48,816 nt of DNA from a virus. The stretch lies in IMG/VR virus record IMGVR_UViG_3300027917_000023. One strand, given 5' to 3'. The notes below the pieces were generated by a model. The model had not been told where the DNA came from. It searched no databases and saw nothing but the letters and a program-made list of their open reading frames with translations. The position numbers and the translations under genes were made by a program. Shown here piece after piece: positions 33,185 through 48,816 of this stretch (the first letter of the stretch is position 1; the number at the start of each line of letters is the position of its first letter).

Positions 33185-33199
33185 AGTTAACCCCCCCCC

Positions 33200-34543: not shown

Positions 34544-34556
34544 ATATTACTTTTGA

Positions 34557-35350: not shown

Positions 35351-35365
35351 TAGGAAATATACGAC

Positions 35366-36808: not shown

Positions 36809-36888
36809 GGCCGTAAGGGGTTAAGAACATTCTGGAAACCAATCAAGACCCCTTGCGGCCAACCGGCCTCAAGGGGTCTTGCTTTATT
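36809..36888 (+). promoter_or_regulatory. Attenuator-like element: intrinsic terminator hairpin with an overlapping, mutually exclusive upstream helix
   Basis: 36844-36855 (caagaccccttg) pairs perfectly (12 bp) with 36870-36881 (caaggggtcttg), followed by ctttatt..ttttt. But 36849-36860 (ccccttgcggcc) can instead pair 12 bp (one G-U) with 36809-36820 (ggccgtaagggg). Confidence 0.35.
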
Positions 36889-36898
36889 AGGACTTTTT

Positions 36899-36972
36899 GC
36901 GAGCATCGTTCAATGGTAGGACGTGAGACTTCCACTCTCAAAATGAGGGTTCGATCCCCTCTGCTCGCACCA
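36899..36972 (+). tRNA. tRNA-Gly (anticodon TCC)
   Basis: Acceptor gcgagca/tgctcgc. Anticodon arm tgaga-cttccac-tctca. T arm gaggg-ttcgatc-ccctc. 3' ACCA. Confidence 0.8.
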
Positions 36973-37014
36973 GGACAGACGTGGGATCTGGAGCGGTTTA
37001 GTCACCGTTAAGGA

Positions 37015-37040
37015 TACTCACGGCGGGTGAGGTGTTTTTT
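37015..37040 (+). terminator. Putative intrinsic terminator (weak stem) after tRNA-Gly
   Basis: ctcac-ggcgg-gtgag hairpin followed by gtgtttttt. Confidence 0.3.
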
Positions 37041-37187
37041 CTGTGCCTTTTGGGACCACCAGCGTTCACTCAAAAAAGGCACCGTGTTATGAAAGGACTC
37101 AGAAACGGGGACGCAAGGCGTGAGATTTGCTAGACTGGCACTTGGATCGCTGGTGCTCTCGTGGAGACCCAAGTAATAGCACGTTAT

Positions 37188-37263
37188 GGGCGTGTAGCTC
37201 AGTTGGGAGAGCGCTTGCTCGGCAGGCAAGAGGGCGTCGGTTCGATTCCGATCACGTCCACCA
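37188..37263 (+). tRNA. tRNA-Ala (anticodon GGC), with G3:U70
   Basis: Acceptor gggcgtg/cacgtcc gives G3:U70. D arm gctc-agttggga-gagc. Anticodon arm cttgc-tcggcag-gcaag (position 33 is C, unusual). T arm gtcgg-ttcgatt-ccgat. 3' ACCA. Confidence 0.75.
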
Positions 37264-37278
37264 GAAAGGAGGTGAAAG

Positions 37279-37377
37279 ATGTCAAGGAGAGCAAAGAAGG
37301 AGGAGAGGAACAGGCGTCGTAAGATGCAGAAGAAGGAAGAGGATGCTAAGAGGAAAGAGAAGAAAGCTAAAGACTGA
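37279..37377 (+). CDS. Tiny highly charged peptide (32 aa, MSRRAKKEERNRRRKMQKKEEDAKRKEKKAKD)
   Basis: Perfect SD aaaggaggtg 8 nt upstream of the ATG, wedged between two tRNAs. Confidence 0.25.
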   Translation: MSRRAKKEERNRRRKMQKKEEDAKRKEKKAKD

Positions 37378-37434
37378 GCTAGGTAGGAAGCTTTGGGCAA
37401 TCAGACAGAAAATTGCTTTAGAAAGGCATGGAAT

Positions 37435-37506
37435 GGGTCGCGCTCTGGGTAAGCGGGTCGGTCTCCAAAACCGACAGCCTGCGGGGTTCGATTCCTCGGC
37501 GGCCTG
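37435..37506 (+). other. tRNA-like element with a Trp-type (CCA) anticodon arm and canonical T arm but no convincing acceptor pairing; possible pseudo-tRNA
   Basis: D-like arm cgct-ctgggta-agcg. Anticodon arm tcggt-ctccaaa-accga. T arm cgggg-ttcgatt-cctcg. The 5' end does not pair with the 3' end. Confidence 0.25.
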
Positions 37507-37547
37507 TTAGAAATGGCTACGAATTTCTGGTGGATTCTAAAATTTAC

Positions 37548-37624
37548 GGCCCCGTAGCCAAATGGATGAAGGCACCGGATTACGAATCCGGCAATTGCAA
37601 GTTCGAATCTTGCCGGGGTCACCA
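37548..37624 (+). tRNA. tRNA-Arg (anticodon ACG)
   Basis: Acceptor ggccccg/cggggtc. Anticodon arm ccgga-ttacgaa-tccgg. T arm gcaag-ttcgaat-cttgc. 3' ACCA. Confidence 0.8.
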
Positions 37625-37758
37625 CGCTCTTGAGTGAGCGAGTTCTTTGACAATTATGGCCGTGGGTGCGCTTGCGGCAACGGGCCAAACGCGGCATGCG
37701 TGTCGTAGGCTCTGAAAGTAAGCATCCGGGCTAGGAGCAATCCTAGCCCTTATGGGGA

Positions 37759-37791
37759 CGGGCCGGGTAACTCCCGGCCCTCCCCTCCTTT
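37759..37791 (+). terminator. GC-rich hairpin (gggccggg-taact-cccggccc) followed by a C/T-rich tract; weak terminator candidate
   Basis: 8-bp GC stem, but the T-run does not start until 8 nt after the stem. A second hairpin gggctagg-agcaat-cctagccc lies at 37727-37748. Confidence 0.25.
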
Positions 37792-37817
37792 TACCTCCAA
37801 TAGATATTATCAAAGCT

Positions 37818-37893
37818 GGGGCAGTGGTGTAGTGGCTAACACACTGGCCTGTCAAGCCAGAGATCGCGGGTTCAAGTCCCGTCTGTCCCGCCA
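37818..37893 (+). tRNA. tRNA-Asp (anticodon GTC)
   Basis: Acceptor ggggcag/ctgtccc. Anticodon arm ctggc-ctgtcaa-gccag. T arm gcggg-ttcaagt-cccgt. 3' GCCA. Confidence 0.85.
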
Positions 37894-38346
37894 GGCCCAG
37901 AGATTTGGGTTCAAATCCCATGACCAGCAGGATGAGTAAGCCTGTTGTGATAGCTTAATCTGGTAAAGTGCTGGGCGTGATTACGAAGCCAGAAAATACT
38001 GGCACAATATAGAGAGAAACCGGAAGCGGGGGTTCGAATCCCTCCCATCGCAGGATGAATAAACCTGTTCGGGTGGCCTAGTCATGAGTTGGCTTGCAGA
38101 ATGAATAACTCTGCTTGGGGCTATACCTGGTGGTAGTTTAGCGGCAGAACGCCGGTTCGAAAATGAAGCCAGAGGCGCGGGTTCGATTCCCGCCTCCCCC
38201 CTCATCTAGAGGGCTAGGATGAGTAAGCCTACGCAGCGGGGAGTAGCTCAGTGGTAGAGCACTGGCTAAAAGAAAAGCCAGAGATAACCCCTGGGCAAGC
38301 AGTGGGATGAGTAAGCCCACTCAGGTAGGATTAACTCTGGCATTAA
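37894..38346 (+). repeat. Array of degenerate tRNA-like units (5' and 3' half-like pieces related to tRNA-Asp/Arg) separated by a conserved 13-nt motif GGATGAGTAAGCC (4 copies)
   Basis: Motif at 37930-37942, 38053-38065 (ggatgaataaacc), 38217-38229 and 38305-38317. Each is preceded by variable/T-arm/acceptor-3'-like sequence and followed by acceptor-5'/D-arm-like sequence (e.g. 38231-38262 cggggag-ta-gctc-agtggta-gagc-a-ctggc). No unit folds into a complete cloverleaf. Confidence 0.5.
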
Positions 38347-38421
38347 TCCGGCGTGGCCTAACGGAAAGGCGGCGAGCTGTTAACTCGTAAGATGGTGGTT
38401 CAACTCCACCCGCCGGAGCCA
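38347..38421 (+). tRNA. tRNA-Asn (anticodon GTT)
   Basis: Acceptor tccggcg/cgccgga (U1-A72). D arm gcct-aacggaa-aggc. Anticodon arm gcgag-ctgttaa-ctcgt. T arm ggtgg-ttcaact-ccacc. 3' GCCA. Confidence 0.75.
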
Positions 38422-38439
38422 ACCAGCGTGGTCCTCTAC

Positions 38440-38545
38440 AAGAATTTCAGACGTTCTCTTTGGGAGGTTGCAGGTTCGAGTCCTGTCCCCCGGATCATCC
38501 GGGGGTAGCTCAATTTGGTAGAGCGCTAGTCATTTTATTCTTGTT
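38440..38545 (+). other. tRNA 3'-half (T arm + acceptor 3' strand) joined through a 3-nt loop to a tRNA 5'-half (acceptor 5' strand + D arm): candidate circularly permuted tRNA or decayed tandem duplicate
   Basis: gcagg-ttcgagt-cctgt then cccccgga (38487-94), tca, tccggggg (38498-505), then ta-gctc-aatttggta-gagc-g-ctagt. The 8-bp acceptor complement forms a hairpin across the junction. Confidence 0.4.
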
Positions 38546-38646
38546 CAATGACCCGCATTTTTAATAATTTTTCATCGGGCTCCGCGCCGGACTTAGTCTC
38601 CATAAGTATTTTAATCATAGAATTACGTTAAGGACAAAAGAGGTGT

Positions 38647-38877
38647 ATGATGGTCAGGATCGGTGCCGTTGCGGGAACCGCTGCAGTAGCAGTAACATAC
38701 CTCATAATCTTCTTCATCATGTCTAACCTAGAGCGAAAGCATGGGCAGACACCTAACTCTGATTACATGGCAGGTGTATTGGGTGTGCTTCTGGCGTGTG
38801 GGGTTCTATTGATAGATCTAATCTTCTTCATCGTATGGATCGTGAGCAATTTTGGGGCGGTAGCTCAGCCTGGTTAG
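38647..38877 (+). CDS. Small two-TM membrane protein (paralog B of 35135..35350)
   Basis: 76-aa ORF MMVRIGAVAGTAAVAVTYLIIFFIM...LIFFIVWIV, with SD aaaagaggtg. Confidence 0.5.
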   Translation: MMVRIGAVAGTAAVAVTYLIIFFIMSNLERKHGQTPNSDYMAGVLGVLLACGVLLIDLIFFIVWIVSNFGAVAQPG

Positions 38878-38884
38878 AGCATAT
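38855..38884 (+). pseudogene. tRNA 5' fragment (acceptor + D arm, ggggcgg-ta-gctc-agcctggtta-gagc) with no downstream anticodon or T arm
   Basis: Canonical 5' third of a tRNA, overlapping the end of ORF 38647 and the RBS of ORF 38907. Confidence 0.35.
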
Positions 38885-38906
38885 GGTAAAACATTGGAGA
38901 TAACAA

Positions 38907-39119
38907 ATGAATATCATCCTACCATTCGAATCATTTCCTTTACTATACGAATCACGAACCAGGACCCTCAAAAATGGTCAGAAATACAGGATCATTATGT
39001 ATCGCAATGGACGCCAGAGAATAATCGGGTTCTACGTAAAAGATTATAATGATGGTTGGTGTGTCTCACATTCAATTGGCGTTACTAAAAACGACCTAAA
39101 ACGAATGTTAGAATGTTAA
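38907..39119 (+). CDS. Hypothetical protein (70 aa)
   Basis: ORF with SD ggagata. Confidence 0.45.
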   Translation: MNIILPFESFPLLYESRTRTLKNGQKYRIIMYRNGRQRIIGFYVKDYNDGWCVSHSIGVTKNDLKRMLEC

Positions 39120-39193
39120 TTGCCCCGTCGTCTAATGGTAGGACGCCAGGTTCTGGCCCTGGCAGTGAGGGTTCGAAACCTTCCGGGGCAACC
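39120..39193 (+). tRNA. tRNA-Gln (anticodon CTG)
   Basis: Acceptor tgccccg/cggggca (U1-A72). Anticodon arm ccagg-ttctggc-cctgg. T arm gaggg-ttcgaaa-ccttc. 3' ACCA. Confidence 0.8.
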
Positions 39194-39265
39194 AAATGGA
39201 TGTTGATTGCTTATAAATATGGCCTTGATTTTTTCCACTTTACTTCATATATCAGAGGGACAATT

Positions 39266-39619
39266 ATGGATAGAGAACCATGCAAACTAGTGGTAGCGTG
39301 GTTGCAAGAAAAAGGAGTACAAGCTTTTTTGTCCCCAAGTGGCTTGGCAATTCATAAAAACGGCAAACCAGTAGTGATGTTCATTATTGACTTAGATCTG
39401 AATTTAATCGTCGTATCGTCGCATAAAAAATTTATCAATCTATCAAGAAACTACGACTTAAATAATCCAGATAGTTTGCCAAATTTATACGACAGATTGG
39501 TAAGCCTGGGCTATCACAATTACAAGCCAACAGAACGCGACTATCACTATTGCTATGATAAAAACTTTGAAATTAGGTTAAACGGCAACGCAGAGCAAGA
39601 CGAATGTGGATACAAATAG
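39266..39619 (+). CDS. Small paralog-family protein (117 aa; C-terminal ...LNNPDSLPNLYDRLVSLGY...)
   Basis: ATG with SD agaggg. The ORF-track start 39113 overlaps tRNA-Gln and is rejected. Family motifs present. Confidence 0.55.
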   Translation: MDREPCKLVVAWLQEKGVQAFLSPSGLAIHKNGKPVVMFIIDLDLNLIVVSSHKKFINLSRNYDLNNPDSLPNLYDRLVSLGYHNYKPTERDYHYCYDKNFEIRLNGNAEQDECGYK

Positions 39620-39621
39620 GA

Positions 39622-39638
39622 GCGGTGGCGTAACGAGA
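39622..39638 (+). pseudogene. Truncated copy of the tRNA-Phe 5' end (gagcggtggcgtaacg), identical to 40047-40062
   Basis: A 17-nt exact match follows a TAG stop, exactly as at the intact tRNA-Phe. The downstream sequence does not fold. Confidence 0.4.
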
Positions 39639-39719
39639 TGGACGGGGCTTCCGGCAAGAACCTGCATGATCAGGATAGTTTCCAAAAATACTCAATTTTA
39701 TTGAAGAAGAACTGAATCC

Positions 39720-40046
39720 ATGGTAGAAATCGAAAGGTTGGTGATGGAGTTCCTTCGCGAGAAAGGATATTGGGTTATCCACGAACCCCGGTACAATAGG
39801 TTTCGGGTTATTAAAGTAACAAGAGGCGAGCATTTTGAAACACAAATATTATTGGCAATTTACACAATTGTTGGTGATAAAATATGTATAATGTACGCAA
39901 AATTTCACCCAAAGCCGTTTAGCATTTACAGCAAAGAAGATTTCGCTAAAATGCTCAAGTTTTTGAAACAAAGGGAACGCGATAGCGCAGATGTCATGCA
40001 TTCAACATCGACTGGCTGGGATACACAACACTACACAGCGGTATAG
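39720..40046 (+). CDS. Small paralog-family protein (108 aa; N-terminal MVEIERLVMEFLREKGYWV...)
   Basis: ORF. Its stop codon overlaps the first base of tRNA-Phe. Confidence 0.55.
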   Translation: MVEIERLVMEFLREKGYWVIHEPRYNRFRVIKVTRGEHFETQILLAIYTIVGDKICIMYAKFHPKPFSIYSKEDFAKMLKFLKQRERDSADVMHSTSTGWDTQHYTAV

Positions 40047-40121
40047 GAGCGGTGGCGTAACGGAAGCGCAGCGCACTGAAAATGCGCAGGTGATCGGGTT
40101 CGACTCCCTCCCGCTCCACCA
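40046..40121 (+). tRNA. tRNA-Phe (anticodon GAA)
   Basis: Acceptor ggagcgg/ccgctcc. Anticodon arm gcgca-ctgaaaa-tgcgc. T arm imperfect (tcggg-ttcgact-ccctc, 3 bp plus mismatches). 3' ACCA. Confidence 0.65.
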
Positions 40122-40216
40122 GATCCACCTGCTAAAAGTCTAACAGAAATAAAAAATGCTCAGTAAGATGCGCTCATAGATTCACAATGGAAGAAATTGA
40201 TTGCACAACACTTCGA

Positions 40217-40292
40217 GGGCGGGTAGCTCAGTTGGGAGAGCGTCTGGTTTGCAACCAGAAGGTCGTCGGTTCGATTCCGATCCTGTCCACCA
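40217..40292 (+). tRNA. tRNA-Ala (anticodon TGC), with G3:U70
   Basis: Acceptor gggcggg/cctgtcc gives G3:U70. D arm gctc-agttggga-gagc. Anticodon arm tctgg-tttgcaa-ccaga. T arm gtcgg-ttcgatt-ccgat. 3' ACCA. Confidence 0.85.
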
Positions 40293-40358
40293 GAGATGAG
40301 GTCTTCACACTTACAATCCTTCTACGTGACCTACATGGATATTATAGAATACATTTAT

Positions 40359-40445
40359 GCGTCGGCTGAGCATTGGCGAGCTCAAGTGGCTGTAACCCAC
40401 CCGCCCTTTGCGGCTTTGGGGGTTCGACTCCCTCCCGGCGCACCA
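40359..40445 (+). tRNA. tRNA-Tyr (anticodon GTA), class II with long variable arm
   Basis: Acceptor gcgtcgg/ccggcgc. Anticodon loop ctgtaac. Variable arm ~13 nt (cgccctttgcggc). T arm ggggg-ttcgact-ccctc. 3' ACCA. Confidence 0.7.
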
Positions 40446-40473
40446 GAATTGGCCCCCAGGCTCCATTATCTAC

Positions 40474-40618
40474 GGCTGGGGTTGAGTCGAGATGCTCGTA
40501 GCAGCTCGGCAGCGCATAAACTAGTGGGAGACACCGTTGAGACTCTGTTGAAACTCGACAGGTCGCTAAACCGGCCCCCTCAATGTTGTGACGCTTGCAC
40601 AAGCTATCGACCCCAGCC
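40474..40618 (+). ncRNA. Structured non-coding element (~145 nt) closed by an 8-bp helix
   Basis: ggctgggg (40474-81) pairs with ccccagcc (40611-18). Nested helices gtcgag/ctcgac and cgag-atg-ctcg. No plausible ORF. Sits between tRNA-Tyr and a tiny ORF. Confidence 0.3.
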
Positions 40619-40654
40619 AACCAGCGAAGACCTATTAGCGAAAGGAGGTGTCGA

Positions 40655-40726
40655 TTGAAGTGTACTTGCTACGACAGAGAACAAACTGCTGTTCCTTTGT
40701 GTCCAATACACGGTTCACCAATGTAA
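40655..40726 (+). CDS. Tiny Cys/His-containing peptide (23 aa, (M)KCTCYDREQTAVPLCPIHGSPM), TTG start
   Basis: Strong SD aaaggaggtg 6 nt upstream of TTG. Too short for any assignment. Confidence 0.2.
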   Translation: MKCTCYDREQTAVPLCPIHGSPM

Positions 40727-40802
40727 TCTTGGGGGTTGCGCATCCATAACACGCAAATGGGAGTTGTTCCACGACCAGCCACCCATTTATCATTAAAGGC
40801 CA

Positions 40803-40848
40803 CGAGTTTTGCAGACTCGCGTGGAAAGTTCGATTCCTTCAACTCTCA
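40803..40848 (+). pseudogene. tRNA 3'-part-like fragment (Ala-type anticodon arm cgagt-tttgcag-actcg + T arm) lacking a 5' acceptor
   Basis: Anticodon-arm and ttcgatt T-loop features are present, but there is no pairing 5' strand. Confidence 0.3.
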
Positions 40849-40852
40849 TAAA

Positions 40853-40926
40853 TGCCCCGTAGTGTAATGGAAGCACGAGCGGCTTTGACCCGCTTAGCGA
40901 AAGTTCGAACCTTTCCGGGGCAACCA
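40853..40926 (+). tRNA. tRNA-Gln (anticodon TTG)
   Basis: Acceptor tgccccg/cggggca. Anticodon arm agcgg-ctttgac-ccgct. T arm gaaag-ttcgaac-ctttc. 3' ACCA. Confidence 0.8.
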
Positions 40927-41115
40927 GATCACCCGAGCCACCGCTGGAAACAGAGGAAGGTCAGGACACCACTGCTTAAGGTGGGAGGGAATTTTCCCGC
41001 TTACCACCAAGGGTGCAATCTCAAGCAGGCTGAGAGTGTGAGCAGCTCTACGAAAGCCGGGTAGAGAGCAAAGATTAATGGTGGCATAGAACAGAATCCT
41101 GCCTACTGGGTGATC
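40927..41115 (+). ncRNA. Structured non-coding element (~190 nt) closed by an 8-bp helix
   Basis: gatcaccc (40927-34) pairs with gggtgatc (41108-15). Internal helices ggtgg/ccacc and gctctac/gtagagc. Contains ggaaggtcagg. Starts at the base after tRNA-Gln. Confidence 0.3.
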
Positions 41116-41175
41116 TTTGATATTAAAGTATTTTATTACTCGTTTATATGATTCACATCAAAACCTGATAACTAT

Positions 41176-41326
41176 GGGGAAGTAGCTCAACAGGATAGAG
41201 TTAGTATGGCGGACCTACATCTTGTAGTCCTATCTATCGGCTAGTGCAGATAGGCAACGCCAGATGGACGGACCGTCAGAATACCCCGTATGGGTGACGT
41301 GGGTTCGAGTCCCACCTTCTCCACCA
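41176..41326 (+). tRNA. tRNA-like element (151 nt) with canonical acceptor stem (G3:U70), D arm, T arm and ACCA end, plus a ~75-nt internal insertion in place of or within the anticodon region
   Basis: 5' ggggaag-ta-gctc-aacaggata-gagt. 3' gtggg-ttcgagt-cccac-cttctcc-a-cca. The 7-bp acceptor includes G3:U70. The insertion forms hairpins ggacctac/gtagtcc and cctatct/agatagg. A possible class-II-like variable hairpin ccc-gtat-ggg is present. Confidence 0.35.
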
Positions 41327-41623
41327 ATGGAAACAACAGAAATATTGAAAGAATTAATCGATGAGCTTGGATATCAAGCCATAATTTATGATCTCATACC
41401 GCATTGGATCGGCGAATGTTACCGAACTATTGATGTAATCAGCCCCAGTACGTGGCCACGCAATAACGTAATCGCTACTATCAAGGTTGACGGCGTCTTC
41501 ATACATATCTTTAAGCGTGTTCTCGGAGGCCGGGGGCGTATAGAATCTAGCCATCAGCTAAGTTTATACGAACCGGATTCATTCTGTAGAATAAAAGAAA
41601 TATTAGCTGAATTAAATGACTAA
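41327..41623 (+). CDS. Small paralog-family protein (98 aa; METTEILKELIDELGYQAI... / ...LSLYEPDSFCRIKEILAELND)
   Basis: ATG immediately follows the CCA of the upstream tRNA-like element (0-nt spacer, no SD). The ORF-track start 41264 lies inside the tRNA-like element and is rejected. Confidence 0.55.
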   Translation: METTEILKELIDELGYQAIIYDLIPHWIGECYRTIDVISPSTWPRNNVIATIKVDGVFIHIFKRVLGGRGRIESSHQLSLYEPDSFCRIKEILAELND

Positions 41624-43067
41624 AAAGAAACAAAAAGAACTTGATTTCATGAACGATCCACGGTACCATTACCAAAGGTCGCATGTGTCTGATGTCGTTG
41701 GAACGATCGATATTGATCGTTATCTCAAATGGTGTAAAGACAATGGATTCAAGGCTACCATATACAAAAGTTGGTTTGACATGAAGAAGGAAAAGTTGTA
41801 CATCGCCAGAAAGAAATGCGACGAAAAACTGTTGGCCAGAAGGAAATTCAAGAATCCAAGGAAAGCACTGGATCTCGTGTTCGACTCAGACATCGTCGGC
41901 GCTGACGCGGCGTACAAAAATTTATACTCTAGAATAAAAACACTCAACAAGAAAGACAAAACCAAGTTCAAAAAGCTTATTACACATATCTACAAACATT
42001 CTGATATCCTCAAAGACCCGCCGTTGATAACGGGACTCCTGAACATCATGAAGTGGGAGCCTTATTACATAAATCGCCCAACGGAGTGGATGCCTAAGAC
42101 ACATAACACAAGAAGACAATTTTCTGATTTGCTTAGGCATTCTTTCTGCAAATACGATGTGCCAAAATTCATGGACGAGGTGTGGTTCTCCGAATATGAC
42201 GGAGCAATAGCCGGAGCAATAGCTGCTGAACTCAAGAGGGAATGGTTCATTTTCATTGGCCAGGGAGGAAATCTTAGGAAGGCTAGGAAACTACCATTCG
42301 AGGTGACGAAGAAGATCGCGCATTATTTTATGCAGGCTCCTGGCAATTTTTCAGTTGAAAACGCACTAATATGGGGAGTCGTGCACAGCATGGGCGGCGA
42401 CAAACGAACCGTCGAGGGCATCCTCAGCACCAAAAGAAACGGACAGCTTAATCGACACAATTTCTGGGTAACGGTCTATAGATTCTTCGTCAACAACCCG
42501 ATGCTAGACACAGCCCAATACAACCCAATCGTCGACTATATCGATGCCATGAAATATCAACCGCAATATGAATGGACGGAACCAGGCATCAGAGTGGAGC
42601 GCCCGCCGATTCAGCCGAATTTTATGATGCGTGGAAGAACCGCTTTCTCGCTGTTAAGGCAAGTGGAAGCCTGGCATAAGAAACTCGGCAAAGAGAAGAA
42701 AGGTGGGAAACTACAATGGGAGAAGAGTAAGTATAATGGATTTGAGTGCCAGACCGGTGAAAGAAGGAACGTCAAAATTTGGACTATCAACGAATTGTTG
42801 TCAAGCGATGAGCTAATACAAGAAGGGAAAACAATGCGGCATTGCGTGGCGTCTTACGCTCGTTCCTGCCAGAGCCAAAGGGTCAGCATTTGGTCGATGA
42901 AGGTAGATACATGGGAAGGCAAGAAGAACGTACTGACCATCGAAGTCAGAGATGGAACAATCATGCAGGCCCGTGGCAAGAGAAACGAAAGACCCACAGA
43001 GGAAGCCAAGAACATCATAAAAAAGTGGAAGAAAACCCAAGGTCTCGGAATCAGTTCTTATATTTAA
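41616..43067 (+). CDS. PcfJ-like domain protein (483 aa)
   Basis: C-terminal region 'ELIQEGKTMRHCVASYARSCQSQRVSIWSM' resembles the conserved core of PcfJ-like proteins. This is an inferred family resemblance, not a search result. Confidence 0.45.
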   Translation: MTKKKQKELDFMNDPRYHYQRSHVSDVVGTIDIDRYLKWCKDNGFKATIYKSWFDMKKEKLYIARKKCDEKLLARRKFKNPRKALDLVFDSDIVGADAAYKNLYSRIKTLNKKDKTKFKKLITHIYKHSDILKDPPLITGLLNIMKWEPYYINRPTEWMPKTHNTRRQFSDLLRHSFCKYDVPKFMDEVWFSEYDGAIAGAIAAELKREWFIFIGQGGNLRKARKLPFEVTKKIAHYFMQAPGNFSVENALIWGVVHSMGGDKRTVEGILSTKRNGQLNRHNFWVTVYRFFVNNPMLDTAQYNPIVDYIDAMKYQPQYEWTEPGIRVERPPIQPNFMMRGRTAFSLLRQVEAWHKKLGKEKKGGKLQWEKSKYNGFECQTGERRNVKIWTINELLSSDELIQEGKTMRHCVASYARSCQSQRVSIWSMKVDTWEGKKNVLTIEVRDGTIMQARGKRNERPTEEAKNIIKKWKKTQGLGISSYI

Positions 43068-44707
43068 AACATATTCACAAGTACAGACGTTGTGAAAACC
43101 GAATCGTCATAATCAACTACTTCGCCATCTTTCACGATGACATAATATAGAGTATTGTCTGGCGGCACACCAAGCTTTGGGTAAAAATGCTCACCACCGA
43201 ATGCTGCGTCTTCATCGTGCGCAATAGGGGTGAAGTAAAATAATGCCTTAAAATTATTTGGGAAGTCGTAATTATGCCTAATGGTATTCAAAAAATCGGT
43301 TAACCCAGATGGTGGCTCACCGTCTCTGGTGCGCTCAAATGCCGAAGCAAACTCTTCTCTATATAATTTGTTGAGATCAGCTGTAGCATAGTCTAAACTA
43401 GTGAGCACACTAGTTAGCTTTGTCACCAACCCAGACTGCCCTTGGGCATGCAGAAACTCACGAGGTGTAAATGACGTACCCTTTGGTGCGTCAAGCACAT
43501 CTTCCATTTCTCTTTGTCTATATTCTCTGTATCTATACGTCTTTTGAGCTATATCCTTGGCTTCGTCCTCTCTGTCCTTGTAATTATCGTACGTAAATCT
43601 GATATCAAAATGCTTGACTTCTTCTTTTTCACCAGTAACTATCGTCATAAGTATCGTAAATACCGATGGATCCTTGAAAACAAGAGGAAAGTGAATATAC
43701 CACGGTTCATTACTATTTGGTGGTTCCGGATATGGTGCTACTTTAACAACCGTGGCATCCCCTTCTTCGTCATCGCCGTATGCGTCAGAGTATGCCATAC
43801 CATACATCTTGTCCCTGATGCCCGTCTCAAATCCTAGTTGCCCTTTGCTCTTAATCCAATCTCTAGCTATGCCTTCTAAGTTGTTTGTAGTATCTTCACC
43901 ATATGCTTCGTCTTCTGGCATTGCTTTGAATCTAACATCACCAGTTGCCGGATTTATAAACATAAATTTTCTTATCATTATCCTGGCGGTTGGATCTTGG
44001 ATACCTTGCTCCGGATGGATTCCATTTTTCCTAAGAACATCTTTCTTAACAAGATACATTATGAAACCACCACACATTATTTCATACCATGCCTTGGTTG
44101 CTTCTCTTATATTAGTACATGATGTCCACCCTCGGTCTTCGCTCATCCTTAGAATATCAACTGGGCTTTTGGAGACTATAACCCAATAATCATTTGGGTT
44201 GACAATTTCTCTGTGCTCAAAATCATCTGCCATCCGTTGTAGGTGCTCTTGATAATTTTCGTAGTTTATACCTTCCATTTCACCATCAACAAATTTTCCG
44301 CCATATTTGTCTACATACCCATATGTGAATAAATTCTTTTCATGTGGCTTCTTAGCTTTTCTCAGTATTTTACCGATTCTTAGCAGATTGCCTCTATAGT
44401 TAACATAACCCTTAATAAGATCAACACCACCAAGCCCAACAGCATATTCAAGTGTGTCTTCCAGCCTCTCCAACCAAATAGTTCTTTCGACAGCTGGTTC
44501 GGCATCAAACTCCTTTATTAAAACCCTATCTTCATCAATCTTATTTGGATCATTCTCAAACCATTCATCAAAGACAGACTGATCGCGTGCTAGCCTATAG
44601 AGGGTGTGAAGCTCTTCCTTGCTGAGATCCTCAAGGATAGGGTCAACAAGAAAGCTGACGTATTCTGGGTCAACCATCTCCCTTATATTTTCCAGAAAGT
44701 ATTTCAA
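43064..44707 (-). CDS. Large hypothetical protein (547 aa), encoded opposite to the surrounding island
   Basis: Long ORF. 'KYGGKFVDGEMEG' weakly resembles a ligase/nucleotidyltransferase KxDG motif, but this is unproven. Confidence 0.55.
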   Translation of the reverse strand: MKYFLENIREMVDPEYVSFLVDPILEDLSKEELHTLYRLARDQSVFDEWFENDPNKIDEDRVLIKEFDAEPAVERTIWLERLEDTLEYAVGLGGVDLIKGYVNYRGNLLRIGKILRKAKKPHEKNLFTYGYVDKYGGKFVDGEMEGINYENYQEHLQRMADDFEHREIVNPNDYWVIVSKSPVDILRMSEDRGWTSCTNIREATKAWYEIMCGGFIMYLVKKDVLRKNGIHPEQGIQDPTARIMIRKFMFINPATGDVRFKAMPEDEAYGEDTTNNLEGIARDWIKSKGQLGFETGIRDKMYGMAYSDAYGDDEEGDATVVKVAPYPEPPNSNEPWYIHFPLVFKDPSVFTILMTIVTGEKEEVKHFDIRFTYDNYKDREDEAKDIAQKTYRYREYRQREMEDVLDAPKGTSFTPREFLHAQGQSGLVTKLTSVLTSLDYATADLNKLYREEFASAFERTRDGEPPSGLTDFLNTIRHNYDFPNNFKALFYFTPIAHDEDAAFGGEHFYPKLGVPPDNTLYYVIVKDGEVVDYDDSVFTTSVLVNMF

Positions 44708-44712
44708 TAAAT

Positions 44713-45072
44713 ATGGAGATACATGACTTAATTGCTGAAGCGTTAAAGGATTTAGGCCACACAGAGATTCTAAAGAGTGGAAAGATTAGAGTCACTACTG
44801 GTATAGGATCTGCCAGATTCAAAATAACCGATATGAAATTCACGTGCTGTTCAGCAACTACTGACGCTGGCAATACACTTGAAATAGATCTGCATGAACC
44901 AGACAGCATAAGAAAAGTCGCAATAATGGTACTAAAATGTTTACATCGTCGTCATGCTTGGGATATCTATTACTTGCCATGCTCATCATGCCCATTTAAT
45001 CTAGAATCTAAAAATGGGCCAGTGATCGCATCACCAGAAAGACACCTTAGAAATAATCCAAATAAATTATGA
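44713..45072 (+). CDS. Small paralog-family protein (119 aa; MEIHDLIAEALKDLGH... / ...IDLHEPDSIRKVAIMVLKCL)
   Basis: ORF with family N- and C-terminal motifs. Confidence 0.55.
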   Translation: MEIHDLIAEALKDLGHTEILKSGKIRVTTGIGSARFKITDMKFTCCSATTDAGNTLEIDLHEPDSIRKVAIMVLKCLHRRHAWDIYYLPCSSCPFNLESKNGPVIASPERHLRNNPNKL

Positions 45073-45389
45073 AAGACATAGAAATAATTGTGCTGGCCAT
45101 AAACAAAATGGGTTACAGAATACGCAGTACAACCCGAAACAGTAGCAACGACGACATTGTAGTGTCGCTCGAAGGCTTCAATGACGAAACTGAATATAGG
45201 TTTGTTTCAATCACAGTTAGAGGTTCAAGACTCAGGCTATCTAACTGCCAATACGAAATAGACCTGTGTGACCCTGATAGCCTTAGGCTCCTAAACAAAG
45301 CAATCGACTATCATGGAACATTGCCTAAAAATTATTCGTGCAGCAAATGCCCGTTAAATATTTATTTGATTGGCACTACGTTCATGTAA
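45069..45389 (+). CDS. Small paralog-family protein (106 aa; MKDIEIIVLAINKMGY... / ...IDLCDPDSLRLLNKAIDYHG)
   Basis: ORF overlapping the previous gene by 4 nt. Family motifs present. Confidence 0.55.
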   Translation: MKDIEIIVLAINKMGYRIRSTTRNSSNDDIVVSLEGFNDETEYRFVSITVRGSRLRLSNCQYEIDLCDPDSLRLLNKAIDYHGTLPKNYSCSKCPLNIYLIGTTFM

Positions 45390-45391
45390 AT

Positions 45392-45463
45392 GCGGCTATG
45401 GTGTAATGGTAACACGTCGGTCTGCCAGTCCGGAGATGCTGAGTTCGATTCTCGCTAGCCGCT
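45392..45463 (+). tRNA. tRNA-Gly (anticodon GCC)
   Basis: Acceptor gcggcta/tagccgc. D arm gtgt-aatggta-acac. Anticodon arm tcggt-ctgccag-tccgg (4 bp plus a 31:39 mismatch). T arm 4 bp (tgag-ttcgatt-ctcg). No encoded CCA. Confidence 0.6.
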
Positions 45464-45465
45464 TA

Positions 45466-45538
45466 AGGTCAGAGATCCGGGTTCAAATCCCGGCGGTACC
45501 GGCCATACTGTAGCTTAACTTGGTAGAGCGCTGGCCAC
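45466..45538 (+). pseudogene. tRNA fragments: 3'-half-like (gtcagagat-ccggg-ttcaaat-cccgg-cggtacc) followed by a 5'-fragment gtagcttaacttggtagagcgctggcc
   Basis: The 5' fragment is near-identical to 38506-38532. The 3'-half resembles the fragment following tRNA-Asp at 37894-37930. Confidence 0.3.
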
Positions 45539-45540
45539 GA

Positions 45541-45614
45541 GTCCCTGTGGTGTAACGGTAGCACGGCACTCTGATAAGGTGTAGGCGAAGGTTCAACTCC
45601 TTCCAGGGGCACCA
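45541..45614 (+). tRNA. tRNA-Ile (anticodon GAT)
   Basis: Acceptor gtccctg/caggggc. D arm gtgt-aacggta-gcac. Anticodon arm gcact-ctgataa-ggtgt. T arm gaagg-ttcaact-ccttc. 3' ACCA. Confidence 0.8.
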
Positions 45615-45926
45615 ATGAACGAATGTGAAATGATAGCAAAAGAGCTACGAATCCATGGCGTCAAAGCGTTCTATAACGACGAACATATGTTTGGGATAAT
45701 CAAACCGCACACGCCAATGTATAGCAGTAGCAAATACGGAGATAGTGGCTTCGGGAGGTTGGTCACATTCACGGTTAAGGATGGGATAATAATCTGCTCA
45801 GATAAAGACCGGATTTATAATTTACACGAACCAAGATCATTGGGTCAGCTCATAAAGTCAATCAAGTTGTGTGAACAAAGGACAAGTTGCCATCAAAAAT
45901 GCGAGTTTAAAAGCCGAAATATGTGA
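45615..45926 (+). CDS. Small paralog-family protein (103 aa; ...IYNLHEPRSLGQLIKSIKLCEQ...)
   Basis: ATG directly abuts the CCA of tRNA-Ile (0-nt spacer, no SD). Confidence 0.55.
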   Translation: MNECEMIAKELRIHGVKAFYNDEHMFGIIKPHTPMYSSSKYGDSGFGRLVTFTVKDGIIICSDKDRIYNLHEPRSLGQLIKSIKLCEQRTSCHQKCEFKSRNM

Positions 45927-46200
45927 AATCTTGGAGAAGTCGCTTATATACCACGGCTTTGTCGTCGTATGGAGTGACAACAGCCTCGGGCCCTATATAA
46001 TTTATAAGCAACAATCATCCCTTATTGGTGGGAAAATAGTTGATTCTTTCCCGCATGGCACGGTGCACATAATTATTGATAATTTAGTGTTAAATAGATT
46101 CCCATCCAACCACACAGTGCCAGCAAAAATACCACTTGCCGATCCGGATTGCTTCAATAAAGCAGTTGAATTTATAGTATTTGACAGGTTGCGATTGTAG
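45871..46200 (+). CDS. Small paralog-family protein (109 aa; ...PLADPDCFNKAVEFIVFDRLRL)
   Basis: ORF. Its last codons and stop (ttg cga ttg tag) form the 5' acceptor of tRNA-Gly(CCC). Confidence 0.5.
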   Translation: MNKGQVAIKNASLKAEICEILEKSLIYHGFVVVWSDNSLGPYIIYKQQSSLIGGKIVDSFPHGTVHIIIDNLVLNRFPSNHTVPAKIPLADPDCFNKAVEFIVFDRLRL

Positions 46201-46261
46201 TTCAATGGTAGAACATGAGCTTCCCACGCTCAAGACGGCGGTTCGATTCCGCTCAGTCGCT
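46191..46261 (+). tRNA. tRNA-Gly (anticodon CCC)
   Basis: Acceptor gcgattg/cagtcgc. D arm gttc-aatggta-gaac. Anticodon arm tgagc-ttcccac-gctca. T arm ggcgg-ttcgatt-ccgct. No encoded CCA. Confidence 0.75.
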
Positions 46262-46264
46262 TCA

Positions 46265-46339
46265 GGTGGCTGTAGCTCAGTGGTAGAGCGTCGGGTTGTG
46301 GCCCCGAAGACGGCGGTTCGATTCCGCTCAGTCGCCCCA
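46265..46339 (+). tRNA. tRNA-His (anticodon GTG) with encoded G-1 and C73
   Basis: g-gtggctg/cagtcgc. D arm gctc-agtggta-gagc. Anticodon arm tcggg-ttgtggc-cccga. 3' half (agacggcggttcgattccgctcagtcgc) identical to tRNA-Gly(CCC). 3' CCCA. Confidence 0.85.
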
Positions 46340-46366
46340 GATGATTAGTGAAAACTTTCTATTTGA

Positions 46367-46453
46367 TTGCAGAGAAGACGCACAAAGCTGAATCTTTATG
46401 ACCCAGAATCATTACCACACTTATTGAGAGCAATTAAGAATGGCAATCGATGA
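46367..46453 (+). pseudogene. Remnant of a paralog-family gene: C-terminal 28 codons only (...KLNLYDPESLPHLLRAIKNGNR*)
   Basis: The family C-terminal motif reads in frame after a stop codon with no start. It overlaps the start of the intact copy at 46440. Confidence 0.3.
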
Positions 46454-46826
46454 TGGTTATATAATTTATGGCAACAAAACCATTATATGCAACAGTACTA
46501 AAACACCGAATTATACGGTTTCCCAGTTATACAAATGGTTGTCACACACGTGGAATGATGACAACGCATTAAGCAGGCAAGAAGTAGCTAGTTTGATAAC
46601 CGCATGGTTGTCAGAGAAAGGCTATAATGTTAGAGTTGACAGCCAATGTGGCTGGTCGTTAAACATTGTCAATGGAAACAACAAAGCGAATTTGTATGTC
46701 GAGTCAAACGCTGTGACGATAGAAGTCGATACATATAATAAGATCAAAAGCTATAATCTATATAATCCAGATAGCCTGCAGAAAATATTAGAGCATATAA
46801 GTGTTCTCGGAAGCGGCATGAAGTAG
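46440..46826 (+). CDS. Small paralog-family protein (128 aa; ...SYNLYNPDSLQKILEHISVLGSGMK)
   Basis: ORF with family motifs, including internal 'WLSEKGYNV'. Confidence 0.55.
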   Translation: MAIDDGYIIYGNKTIICNSTKTPNYTVSQLYKWLSHTWNDDNALSRQEVASLITAWLSEKGYNVRVDSQCGWSLNIVNGNNKANLYVESNAVTIEVDTYNKIKSYNLYNPDSLQKILEHISVLGSGMK

Positions 46827-46844
46827 TGGTTGAGGACGGCTCCA

Positions 46845-46919
46845 CGGGCCTTAGTGAAGTTTGGTTATCACGCCACATTTGGGATGTGGAGAGCGCGGGT
46901 TCGACTCCCGCAGGCCCGA
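46845..46919 (+). tRNA. tRNA-Pro (anticodon TGG) with C1:G72 and A73
   Basis: Acceptor cgggcct/aggcccg. D arm gtga-agtttggtta-tcac. Anticodon arm ccaca-tttggga-tgtgg. T arm gcggg-ttcgact-cccgc. No encoded CCA. Confidence 0.8.
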
Positions 46920-46925
46920 TCAATC

Positions 46926-46999
46926 CGCGCCGTGGCCTAATTTGCTAAGGCACCCGGTTCGGGTCCGGGGGATTGCTGGTTGGAATCCAGTCGGCGCGA
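46926..46999 (+). tRNA. tRNA-Pro (anticodon CGG) with C1:G72 and A73
   Basis: Acceptor cgcgccg/cggcgcg. D arm gcct-aatttgcta-aggc. Anticodon arm cccgg-ttcgggt-ccggg. T arm gctgg-ttggaat-ccagt. No encoded CCA. Confidence 0.8.
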
Positions 47000-47076
47000 T
47001 TAGTAGGAGAGACGGCAATGAAACCGCTCAGAAATGTCCAACAGCCCTGAATAATTGCCACAATGACAACCTAATC

Positions 47077-47152
47077 GCCCCCGTAACTCAATGCACAGAG
47101 TAACCGGCTTCTATCCGGTAAGTTGCAGGTTGAAATCCTGCCGGGGGTACCA
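47077..47152 (+). tRNA. tRNA-Arg (anticodon TCT)
   Basis: Acceptor gcccccg/cgggggt. D arm actc-aatgcaca-gagt. Anticodon arm accgg-cttctat-ccggt. T arm gcagg-ttgaaat-cctgc. 3' ACCA. Confidence 0.8.
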
Positions 47153-47190
47153 GAAATGACGGTCGAATATTGCATTTGAATGTGCGGTCA

Positions 47191-47571
47191 ATGGTTTGGA
47201 ATAATGGGAAATTCTTGACTTCTTCACCTACGAAGTATGCTTCCCTTGGCTTTAAATTTACATTGGCAGAAGAACACAAGCTAATAACAACTGTGCTGCA
47301 TGAATTGCAAAATCATTTGCGTACATCTTTACCACTCGGCTACCAATTCTGCTACATCGTAAAGCACGCAGATGAGTCCTGGTTTGAAATGTTTTGTGTA
47401 GTAAGAACAGATTACAACCATCACTGGCGAGTGCGTATCACAATCAGCGGCAATATTATCATAGAGATGGATGGCACACGGACGTACAAATCGACCATAG
47501 CCAATCCAAATTGCTTTGAAGAGATAACTGAACTAATCTGCCATAATGAAGCCAAACAGCTTAGAACATAA
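47191..47571 (+). CDS. Small paralog-family protein (126 aa; ...EHKLITTVLHELQNHLRTSLPLGY... / ...STIANPNCFEEITELICHNE)
   Basis: First ATG in frame. The ORF-track TTG start 47170 is less likely. Family motifs present. Confidence 0.5.
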   Translation: MVWNNGKFLTSSPTKYASLGFKFTLAEEHKLITTVLHELQNHLRTSLPLGYQFCYIVKHADESWFEMFCVVRTDYNHHWRVRITISGNIIIEMDGTRTYKSTIANPNCFEEITELICHNEAKQLRT

Positions 47572-47794
47572 AATCATGGTCGAAGCAGCGTTGAATATCC
47601 GAGATTTACTCGAAGTATGCTTGCCAGAAAATTTTGAATGCGGCCAAATCCACAGCCGCACGGGTCGCTGCGGATACGTTAAATTCATGGTGATACCAGA
47701 CGTAAATTTCGGCGGTGGATATATGGTTGTAATAAAAGATGGCGTCATAAACGTGTATTTCGGGGAGAGGCATGCATTACCAACAGCAGCATGA
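47546..47794 (+). CDS. Small hypothetical protein (82 aa), possibly a divergent family member
   Basis: ORF overlapping the previous gene by 26 nt. Confidence 0.4.
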   Translation: MKPNSLEHKIMVEAALNIRDLLEVCLPENFECGQIHSRTGRCGYVKFMVIPDVNFGGGYMVVIKDGVINVYFGERHALPTAA

Positions 47795-48071
47795 ACCCGT
47801 AAAAAATCAACATGTGCGCCAACCAACGGAAAAAGGATTCTTTCAAAATTCGGTGTTGCAGCAAGACATCCAACAGGAAGGCGTTTAGAAGCGGGAGTAT
47901 CCTCGGGCTGAAAATTACTTGAATAATGCCCTGGGCGGCGGACACCACTCGTTGAGACGTTTTGATGTTTTTCCCTAAGATACCGATATTCTTTGTGAAC
48001 CAGGTTGAAATCTTGTAGATTAAGCCAAGGAGGAAAACAGTGAGAGCGGTAAAGAAGAGGAAATCGAACAT
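47745..48071 (-). CDS. Hydrophobic small protein (108 aa, putative membrane protein)
   Basis: ORF with several hydrophobic segments. Weak, distant SD. The alternative longer ORF 47533..48138 looks like antisense noise. Confidence 0.3.
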   Translation of the reverse strand: MFDFLFFTALTVFLLGLIYKISTWFTKNIGILGKNIKTSQRVVSAAQGIIQVIFSPRILPLLNAFLLDVLLQHRILKESFFRWLAHMLIFYGFMLLLVMHASPRNTRL

Positions 48072-48205
48072 TATTTGGCGACACCATCCTTAAGTTATTC
48101 AAACACAAGCGCATTGAAATCTTAGGAATGTCAGGCAACCGAGTTAATTTTCACACAGTAACCAATTCGTGGCCAAGGATCAAATTAGAATCTTCAGTGG
48201 CGTCC

Positions 48206-48679
48206 TTATCGATCGGACTGAGATGCCTTATTAGCCCAATCTTTTTCAATTTCTTTTTTCCATTTCGGGCTACGTTTACGTTTTTCCGCTTTTTGGATCA
48301 CTTCCGGAATCATCTGAAGCAACCGTTGCTTATCAACCGGTTTATCTAAAAAAGCGTCCGGGCTGAAATAATCATGGTCCGGCCATTGGCGGTAATTGAT
48401 GTTTAACTCCTCTCCTATGGCGGAAACGCCAATGATAGGAATATCCTTAAGATCATCATTGGATCGTACTTGCTTGCAAACCTCAAAACCAGAGAACAGC
48501 GTCTCCATCATGATATCGAGCATGATCAAGTCGGGACGCTCTTTTCGGATTAATTCCAATCCTTTTTGACCTTCATCGGCCGTCAATACCTCAAAGCCAT
48601 TTCTTTTTAGAAATGTTTCCATCGTAAAAAGGAAATCGGTATTGTCATCGACTATTACGATTTTGAGGCTCTTTTTCAT
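48206..48679 (-). CDS. Response-regulator receiver (CheY-like REC) domain protein
   Basis: 157-aa ORF 'KIVIVDDNTDF...PDLIMLDIMM...IPIIGVSA...' carries the acidic pocket (DD), phospho-acceptor Asp (LIMLD) and the conserved Thr/Ser and Lys positions of REC domains. Lies in GC-richer sequence. Confidence 0.65.
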   Translation of the reverse strand: MKKSLKIVIVDDNTDFLFTMETFLKRNGFEVLTADEGQKGLELIRKERPDLIMLDIMMETLFSGFEVCKQVRSNDDLKDIPIIGVSAIGEELNINYRQWPDHDYFSPDAFLDKPVDKQRLLQMIPEVIQKAEKRKRSPKWKKEIEKDWANKASQSDR

Positions 48680-48816
48680 GATATTCTCCTCTTGGCATCA
48701 TGTTAAAATAGTGATGAGGTCACGGCCTTTGGTCCAGATAGATCCATACCCTAGTTGGACGCTATGATATTATCATTCAGAACATTTCGTCAAGTTAAAA
48801 GATAAATTGAGATTCG

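Follow-up and report, generated by a model that had tools for sequence, protein, structure and literature searches.

The tRNA punctuation of mitochondria, the model of Ojala, Montoya, and Attardi (reviewed in PMC3790967), is a mode of gene expression in which open reading frames (ORFs) are flanked directly by tRNA genes in a polycistronic unit, and in which messages with leaders of 0 to 3 nucleotides (nt) and no Shine-Dalgarno sequence are proposed to be released by RNase P at the tRNA 5′ ends and by an endonuclease at the 3′ ends. Here we describe a similar arrangement in the virus record IMGVR_UViG_3300027917_000023 of IMG/VR, whose whole stretch of 48,816 nt is called the window below. In its array of tRNA genes and small ORFs, two ORFs (41327 and 45615, named by their first positions) start on the base after the 3′ CCA of a tRNA-like element and of a tRNA-Ile. 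Mitochondrial punctuation would be the closest analogue of this array in its proposed working. The two systems differ in that half of the phage tRNAs encode their CCA, which mitochondrial tRNAs do not, and in that several phage ORFs run 9 to 15 nt into the next tRNA, whereas mitochondrial partial stop codons are completed by polyadenylation. Moreover, the phage system is that of a bacterial virus, is known here from sequence alone, and would presumably employ host nucleases together with an RNase P RNA of its own.

Transcriptionally leaderless mRNAs include that of lambda cI, transcribed from PRM, and are abundant in Actinobacteria (PMC4633059, PMC4681348). They share with the phage genes the 5′-terminal AUG and the lack of a Shine-Dalgarno sequence, and six phage genes with the arrangement GTATTT-N7/8-ATG resemble this class; at the phage tRNA junctions, in contrast, no promoter element precedes the ATG, and the 5′ end would arise by cleavage and carry a monophosphate instead of a triphosphate. 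In Escherichia coli, MazF cleaves at ACA upstream of AUG and generates leaderless mRNAs with a 5′-OH end (PMC3848588). The likeness is that an endonuclease turns a longer transcript into an mRNA starting at or next to AUG, whereas MazF is a stress toxin and the phage cut would belong to constitutive tRNA maturation, with tRNA structure or the U of AUG setting its position. RNase Z of Thermotoga maritima and RNase E of E. coli supply the exact cut after A76 that a phage counterpart would require, although they have been described in this role for tRNA maturation only (PMC7479834). The segB tRNA cluster of phages T4 and T6 (PMC13096335) resembles the present locus in its tRNA array, small ORFs, HNH-type or homing endonuclease, and signs of segmental duplication. 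A literature search found no report of phage tRNA clusters in which the start codon keeps a fixed distance from the tRNA 3′ end, and an incomplete one found no description of leaderless mRNAs derived from tRNA processing in phages or bacteria. We know of no coding function of the trailer in the RNase Z and RNase E precedents and of no earlier case of tRNA-punctuated mRNA release in a prokaryotic virus.

An earlier note on this DNA had reported that both ORFs start at the base after a CCA and that neither has a ribosome-binding site, and both statements agree with our analysis. The sequence reads CCTTCTCCACCA followed by ATGGAAACA at 41326/41327 and CCAGGGGCACCA followed by ATGAACGAA at 45614/45615, the bases before the ATG being CTCCACCA and GGGGCACCA, respectively. 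There is no Shine-Dalgarno sequence upstream of ORF 41327, and the sole purine run before ORF 45615 (AGGGG, −10 to −6) belongs to the tRNA acceptor stem, of which it forms the 3′ strand. The tRNA-Ile cloverleaf folds independently of the downstream ORF, and the first 51 nt of ORF 41327 are nearly unstructured (−2 kcal/mol). The two junctions are formed by the following features.

41176 to 41326, plus strand: 151-nt tRNA-like RNA, having an acceptor stem with G3:U70 and A73, a D arm, a T arm, and an encoded CCA.
41327 to 41623, plus strand: 98-amino-acid (aa) paralog gene, whose ATG is the base after CCA (tRNA position 77).
45541 to 45614, plus strand: tRNA-Ile(gat) with encoded CCA (ARAGORN; Rfam 64.3 bits).
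45615 to 45926, plus strand: 103-aa paralog gene, whose ATG is the base after CCA (tRNA position 77).

These two cases understate the pattern, as such junctions are restricted neither to two, nor to CCA-encoding tRNAs, nor to the paralog family. We defined tRNA position 77 as 3 nt past the discriminator, whatever triplet fills positions 74 to 76, and counted junctions over the 30 tRNA or tRNA-like genes of the window and of locus L001. The latter, taken from the source contig (ENA ERZ27279932, k141_869270, 261,688 bp), has the window sequence over 31616 to 47789 (L001 coordinate = window coordinate − 31615) and adds about 5 kb of array. An ATG stands at position 77 in 7 of the 30 genes (binomial P = 2e-6 at an ATG frequency of 0.020), and all seven open recognizable genes; the preceding triplet reads CCA, TTA, or CTA. 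In the plus-strand array, the junctions are as follows.

tRNA-like element, positions 73 to 76 A-CCA, start at window 41327: paralog.
tRNA-Ile, positions 73 to 76 A-CCA, start at window 45615: paralog.
tRNA-Glu, positions 73 to 76 A-CTA, start at L001 16835: paralog (MTIAADIIAAYLVENGY).
tRNA-Ser(tga), positions 73 to 76 G-TTA, start at L001 18272: YAcAr/SLOG protein, with the Pfam domain running from that Met.
tRNA-Ser(cga), positions 73 to 76 G-CCA, start at L001 20286: ORF with the paralog C-terminal motif.
tRNA-Ser(gga), positions 73 to 76 G-CCA, start at L001 20768: paralog.
tRNA-Thr(cgt), positions 73 to 76 T-TTA, start at L001 21290: HNH endonuclease, with the domain running from residue 3.
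tRNA-Ser(gct), CCA-A-ATG, start at L001 19423: paralog, an eighth junction with one extra base (position 78).

For tRNA-Ser(tga), ARAGORN sets the discriminator one base later, which would place the ATG at position 76; it is read here as G1-C72/G73, which agrees with where the Rfam match starts and with the discriminator usual for bacterial tRNA-Ser. An apparent overlap of the tRNA-Met discriminator with an ATG (L001 18182) was rejected as a gene-caller artefact, as the class II tRNA-Ser(tga) lies between the two and the YAcAr domain begins at Met31 of that call, which is the position-77 ATG of tRNA-Ser(tga).

The eight tight tRNA-to-ORF gaps measure 0, 0, 0, 0, and 1 nt after an encoded CCA and 3, 3, and 3 nt after a CCA-less discriminator. 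The remaining four are 16, 38, 71, and 100 nt long, with purine tracts of the GGA/GAGG type in at least two of these ordinary spacers (16 and 71 nt). All eight junction genes start with ATG and have a tRNA acceptor strand upstream, with no Shine-Dalgarno sequence and no space for one, and their start regions are A-rich and weakly folded. They comprise five full-length paralogs, one ORF with a paralog C-terminal fragment, one YAcAr/SLOG gene, and one HNH endonuclease gene. Because the flanks have nothing in common except the triplet and the ATG, and because three unrelated protein families are involved, the pattern does not descend from one duplicated junction. At the tRNA 3′ ends, the base after the CCA is G (mostly in GA) in 10 of the 15 CCA-encoding tRNAs, and 9 of the 10 CCA-less tRNAs have T at position 74; both features may be determinants of 3′ processing, and RNase Z favors T or U at position 74.

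Comparison with other phages places this arrangement within one lineage. In 11 other phage tRNA arrays (162 tRNAs), ATG occurs at position 77 six times, which is about the chance rate, and in no case opens a gene; genes after tRNAs in these arrays begin 5 to 57 nt downstream, with a single exception on L133. This unrelated phage contig of higher GC content, which also carries the mini RNase P RNA described below, has a 104-aa ORF (4346 to 4734) that begins 2 nt past the tRNA-Asn discriminator, appears paralog-like by eye, and is possibly a distant member of the family. An arbitrary sample of IMG/VR provided 126 sites with a T arm followed by CCA/ATG, 113 of them evaluable, and showed no enrichment: the frame stayed open for at least 60 codons in 11 of 113 cases for ATG versus 11 and 9 for the other two frames. 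A gene start at CCA/ATG is therefore not a general phage habit but a lineage-specific one. The sample does include isolated real cases, namely HNH genes and a gene that its sequence marks as a probable DNA methylase. HNH genes begin directly at tRNA-CCA/ATG in the unrelated contigs L063 and L075, and the HNH gene of the present array lies at L001 21290 to 21452, which suggests that tRNA 3′ ends are recurrent landing sites for homing endonuclease genes.

Comparative evidence comes from the sole relative found, a 2.9-kb sequence (L003) sampled also by the Joint Genome Institute (JGI) and Logan. Its ortholog junction reads tRNA-Ile-CCA-G-ATG, with a 1-nt spacer, so that near-zero spacing has been kept despite saturated synonymous sites; in addition, the CCA of its tRNA-Gly(gcc) directly abuts the GTG of a 221-codon ORF. 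A megablast of window 36.5 to 48 kb against INPHARED gave no match, and neither the PcfJ-like protein nor the 41327 protein nor the 45615 ortholog pair returned relatives when scanned against IMG/VR. A metagenome scan with a 547-aa neighbor protein retrieved the known JGI fragment only; distant homologs of this protein (P0009 and P0010) lie outside tRNA arrays.

ORFs 41327 and 45615 are real genes of a family of paralogs of about 100 aa, with at least 14 copies on the phage contig. Members share an N-terminal helix with the motif x-E-x-x-L-I-x-x-L-x-E-x-G-Y, followed by five strands and a C-terminal helix that opens with L-x-(E/D/N)-P-(D/N)-(S/C)-(L/F). An AlphaFold (AF2) model of the 41327 protein (predicted local distance difference test [pLDDT], 87.8; predicted template modeling score [pTM], 0.79) places helix 1 at residues 3 to 13. 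Compared with the L003 orthologs, the proportions of nonsynonymous (pN) and synonymous (pS) differences are 0.206 and 0.865 for ORF 45615 and 0.147 and 0.81 for ORF 44713; pN is thus far below a saturated pS, which indicates clear purifying selection on both. The function of the family could not be read from Pfam or PHROG (no significant match, sub-threshold ones only) or from Foldseek against PDB and BFVD (weak or uncharacterized matches only), and an exhaustive profile search recovered 24 proteins among 1.84 billion representatives (E ≤ 1e-3).

We regard the production of leaderless mRNAs for the junction genes by tRNA processing as the best reading of this array, with a probability of roughly 0.45. 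Endonucleolytic 3′ maturation would separate the tRNA from the downstream message and yield a 5′-monophosphate mRNA that starts at AUG or with at most 1 to 3 extra bases. One candidate cutter is an RNase Z of the type cleaving after CCA, as the T. maritima enzyme cuts just 3′ of an encoded CCA (PMC7479834). The other is RNase E, which directly forms the mature CCA end on some E. coli tRNAs (the proline tRNAs) (PMC7479834) and positions its cut in single-stranded RNA two bases upstream of a U, with U at +2 as a ruler (PMC5222698). The sequences CCA/AUG, UUA/AUG, CUA/AUG, CCAG/AUG, and CCAA/AUG all have the U of AUG at +2, so an RNase E ruler set on this U would allow for the one extra base and for the A/U-rich character of the non-CCA triplets. 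After an RNase E cut, trimming and CCA addition would complete the CCA-less tRNAs; RNase Z, as the alternative, would cut CCA-less precursors after N73 and leave a 3-nt leader. Translation of the message would be leaderless, with 70S ribosomes binding directly to the 5′-terminal AUG. When a leaderless mRNA carries a 5′ phosphate, 70S ribosomes bind it directly. The acceptor stem, folded 4 nt 5′ of the AUG, would offer no single-stranded platform for a 30S subunit. RNase P, possibly built around the phage mini RNase P RNA, would cut each tRNA at its 5′ end. The wider proposal, that a huge-phage lineage holds its starts at tRNA position 77 as punctuation, with 3′ maturation yielding leaderless mRNAs and a minimal RNase P RNA cutting the 5′ sides, is put forward still more tentatively.

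The earlier note had suggested that tRNA maturation makes leaderless mRNAs and that expression of the small paralog proteins is thereby coupled to tRNA processing. The former idea gains from the eight junctions at which the start is fixed beside the tRNA 3′ end, the nearly kept spacing in L003, the GTATTT hint presented below, and the enzymes known to cut after CCA, but it has to be amended in that the 5′ end would not always be exactly AUG. Positive coupling is weakened by the five ORFs that end inside the next tRNA.

These overlaps belong to a set of observations that weigh against tRNA-processed leaderless messages. Most studied bacteria finish CCA-encoding tRNAs by a downstream cut and exonucleolytic trimming, which would leave no 5′-AUG. 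Nor is the spacer always the same: it amounts to 1 nt at tRNA-Ser(gct) and at the tRNA-Ile of L003 and to 3 nt of non-CCA sequence at three junctions, and the product would not always be exactly 5′-AUG unless the U of AUG sets the cut, as RNase E would allow. Many window genes lack a Shine-Dalgarno sequence, so its absence alone is not diagnostic. On the other side of the ORFs, the gaps to the next tRNA run from −15 to +4 nt at eight junctions (including 1, 2, and 4 nt), and five ORFs terminate 1 to 15 nt inside the tRNA (gaps −1, −10, −15, −9, and −9). They are 45871 to 46200 (tRNA at 46191) and 39720 to 40046 (tRNA at 40046) in the window, and 16242 to 16775, 19944 to 20207, and 20416 to 20688 in L001. 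Three of the five use the conserved U8-A9-R10 as a TAG/TAA stop and four have the stop 9 to 15 nt inside the tRNA, while ORF 39720 to 40046, ending TA/G1 of tRNA-Phe, is the only one whose stop could be completed by A addition. RNase P cleavage would therefore strip the stop codons and leave non-stop messages. Maturation of the tRNA and translation of the upstream ORF are mutually exclusive on such overlapping molecules, and upstream ORFs are not kept intact as in tRNA punctuation. It appears from this that at least some genes are translated from unprocessed RNA.

The overlapping ORFs, which terminate properly on uncut RNA only, would be expected under mere compaction, with all ORFs translated from unprocessed or partly processed polycistronic RNA, independently of Shine-Dalgarno sequences and from A-rich unstructured starts, the short spacers resulting from selection for a small genome; tRNA maturation would then compete with or destroy ORF expression. 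The equally extreme ORF-to-tRNA spacing (1, 2, and 4 nt; overlaps of 1 to 15 nt), the many window genes without a Shine-Dalgarno sequence, and the weakly folded, A-rich starts agree with this explanation. However, it predicts a spread of small gaps and not an ATG fixed at position 77 for CCA and TTA/CTA alike, equally dense phage tRNA arrays never have a gene start at this position, and the acceptor stem so close to the AUG should hinder 30S docking. We consider it somewhat unlikely. A lower probability is given to junctions that are by-products of history, in which duplication, insertion, or recombination (perhaps HNH driven) joined DNA at tRNA ends and CCA later decayed to CTA or TTA, a path from CCA to CTA to TTA that takes C-to-T transitions only. 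The class II genes for tRNA-Ser(gct) (L001 19335 to 19421) and tRNA-Ser(cga) (20199 to 20285) are near-identical copies with the anticodon as essentially the sole difference, and the second splits a paralog gene, whose N-terminal ORF ends in the tRNA and whose C-terminal motif LADPDCF follows CCA/ATG. This pair speaks for recent duplication and insertion within the array, and the HNH gene here and those at CCA/ATG in L063 and L075 fit the same picture, so history may contribute to the junctions. As a sole cause it is at odds with eight junctions made by different tRNAs and three unrelated protein families with no common flank, with purifying selection on downstream genes that must be translated somehow, and with spacing that survives in L003 despite saturated neutral sites.

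Finally, the starts themselves might be mis-assigned, with true starts downstream (ATG 45630 for ORF 45615 and TTG 41345 for ORF 41327) and a coincidental CCA-abutting ATG. ORF 45615 has a conserved in-frame Met6 (residue 5 in L003), a possible alternative true start to judge from the alignment, and the residues before it are the least conserved: residues 2 to 5 differ, with an indel. This Met6 aligns with a buried helix position (I/L) of the paralogs. Gene callers also misplace several starts in this region, such as 41264, which lies inside the tRNA-like RNA, for 41327. Yet seven coincidences at one position have a probability of about 2e-6, no second ATG lies near the 5′ end of ORF 41327, and the conserved Gly falls at residue 15 in 41327, 44713, 45069, and 45615 only when the first ATG (at the junctions, the CCA-abutting one) is taken as the start (residue 16 in 39720 and in the tRNA-Glu-linked paralog). 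The AF2 helix from residue 3 and the Pfam YAcAr and HNH domains, which begin at residues 1 to 3 of the position-77 starts, likewise oppose downstream starts, which we consider very improbable. Since gene callers mis-start junction genes, similar genes are probably mis-annotated elsewhere.

A further hint that leaderless messages may be at home in this phage is the sequence GTATTT, which precedes the ATG by 7 nt (in one case by 8 nt) in six called genes: the helicase gene 713 to 2218, 6719 to 7336, the primase gene (second ATG), 34572 to 35138, 44713 to 45072, and L001 18886. Read as a −10 box TATTTn at −12 to −7, it would place +1 at the A of the ATG. These genes may thus give transcriptionally leaderless mRNAs, which would make leaderless messages routine in this phage and suggests that the host ribosome routinely initiates on 5′-terminal AUGs. 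The box also lies 8 nt before G1 of tRNA-Gly(ccc). Scans for sigma-70 promoters and terminators gave sites not above shuffled expectation, and there is no space for promoters at the tRNA-ORF junctions. The array appears to be transcribed as a few polycistronic units. The positions of the boxes suggest a putative unit from 41128 through the tRNA-like RNA and ORF 41327 to the PcfJ-like gene, which is inferred to share the transcription unit of ORF 41327, and a second from 44699 through 44713, 45069, tRNA-Gly, the YrlA-like piece, and tRNA-Ile to ORFs 45615 and 45871, with 44713 to 45072 probably as its first gene. The boxes and the other members of these units are listed below.

Window 2231, 7349, and 20997, minus strand, and 34559 and 44699, plus strand; L001 18873, plus strand: GTATTT sites before the six genes.
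Window 46177, 41128, 38606, and 36601, plus strand: further GTATTT sites.
41128 to 41133, plus strand: GTATTT box that may act as a −10-like promoter element, lying 42 nt before the tRNA-like RNA.
41616 to 43067, plus strand: 483-aa PcfJ-like gene (Pfam PF14284, E 3.4e-15), overlapping the stop of ORF 41327 (ATGACTAA).
44699 to 44704, plus strand: GTATTT box 8 nt before ATG 44713, kept in L003.
44713 to 45072, plus strand: 119-aa paralog gene, by paralog alignment.
45069 to 45389, plus strand: 106-aa paralog gene, with its stop 2 nt upstream of tRNA-Gly(gcc).
45392 to 45463, plus strand: tRNA-Gly(gcc) without encoded CCA, with T at position 74.
45474 to 45529, plus strand: Y RNA-like (YrlA) tRNA-mimic fragment between tRNA-Gly and tRNA-Ile (RF02553, 27.1 bits, E 0.017; L001 13859 to 13914).
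45871 to 46200, plus strand: paralog gene with an uncertain start, whose TAG stop is U8-A9-G10 of tRNA-Gly(ccc) (10-nt overlap).
46191 to 46261, plus strand: tRNA-Gly(ccc) (ARAGORN, Rfam), with GTATTT-N8 directly before it.

Upstream of the first of these units, the array encodes an RNA that could serve the 5′ side of the proposed processing.

40853 to 40926, plus strand: tRNA-Gln(ttg) with encoded CCA (ARAGORN; Rfam 62.9 bits), at whose 3′ end the mini RNase P RNA begins.
40925 to 41121, plus strand: reduced RNase P RNA of about 197 nt (RF00010, bacterial type A, 66.5 bits, E 7e-20, below the gathering score of 100).
L129, L131 to L141, and L144: homologs of the mini RNase P RNA.

The catalytic core is kept (P1 to P5, CR-I, CR-V, and the bulged U in P4), while the specificity domain (P7 to P14) is almost absent, about 140 model positions being skipped. 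A motif pair derived from this RNA occurs in 13 IMG/VR stretches on contigs of 5.8 to 476 kb (two of the sequences are the same), 11 of them inside tRNA arrays and on the tRNA strand. Counted by contig, the homologs lie on 12 IMG/VR contigs. In an alignment of 13 sequences, 22 of the 30 predicted pairs show compensatory changes, among them those of P1 and of P4, the helix with the bulged U. Among 185,579 species genomes, the motif gave mostly chance matches in coding sequence; one match is a clear homolog, on a 1.5-kb contig with 13 tRNAs, and two or three others look RNase P-like. An incomplete literature search found no publication on a phage-encoded RNase P RNA. If the assignment is true, viruses would carry a natural minimal RNase P ribozyme that recurs in phage tRNA arrays.

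The 151-nt RNA before ORF 41327 is neither a standard tRNA nor a tmRNA. It scores 35.9 bits with the Rfam tRNA model (RF00005; gathering score, 29), matching in the acceptor, D, and T arms, while the anticodon arm is replaced by 93 structured nt; G3:U70 and A73 are identity elements of the alanine type. ARAGORN made no call for 41176 to 41326 at default settings and, when relaxed, gave a weak "tRNA-Ser plus 57-nt intron" with a poor anticodon stem. A transfer-messenger RNA (tmRNA), permuted or not, was rejected because RF00023 matches the two ends only (31.7 bits versus a gathering score of 47), ARAGORN found no tmRNA, and reading the insert revealed no convincing tag frame: the frame from GCA 41246 runs stop-free into ORF 41327, and a second frame closes at TGA with an atypical peptide.

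The array as a whole belongs to an uncultured 262-kb myovirus-like phage and forms a plus-strand mosaic of tRNAs and ORFs from 36.9 kb to past the window end. Tail sheath, baseplate, tape measure, ribonucleotide reductase, helicase, and primase genes, on the minus strand up to about 34.5 kb, mark the window as phage. ARAGORN at default found 24 tRNAs in the array across the window and L001, four class II tRNA-Ser genes were added at slightly relaxed thresholds, and a tRNA with an insertion (37944 to 38052) accompanies the 151-nt tRNA-like RNA. YrlA pieces, the reduced RNase P RNA, and about 25 small ORFs complete the array. YrlA (RF02553) tRNA-mimic modules lie among the tRNAs at 38437 to 38548, 38176 to 38260, 37894 to 37943, and 45474 to 45529, each with a D-arm-like part that comes after a T arm and an acceptor strand; their best score, 44.5 bits, does not reach the gathering score, and the window showed no Ro/Rsr gene. 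Over its final ~1 kb (47790 to 48816), the window departs from L001, where the tRNA/ORF array goes on, and holds an ORF called from its sequence as response-regulator-like (48206 to 48679, minus strand). The window end past 47789 is probably a chimeric or alternative assembly join.

If confirmed, this array would be, to our knowledge, the first case of tRNA-punctuated mRNA release in a prokaryotic virus, and housekeeping tRNA maturation would join transcription starts and stress toxins as a systematic source of leaderless mRNAs. It would also provide a concrete reason for the frequent occurrence of small ORFs in phage tRNA arrays. If the reading holds true, the phage would carry an analogue of mitochondrial punctuation that evolved independently in a bacterial system, and expression of the genes embedded in the array, among them those of a private family of ~100-aa proteins, would be linked to tRNA processing.

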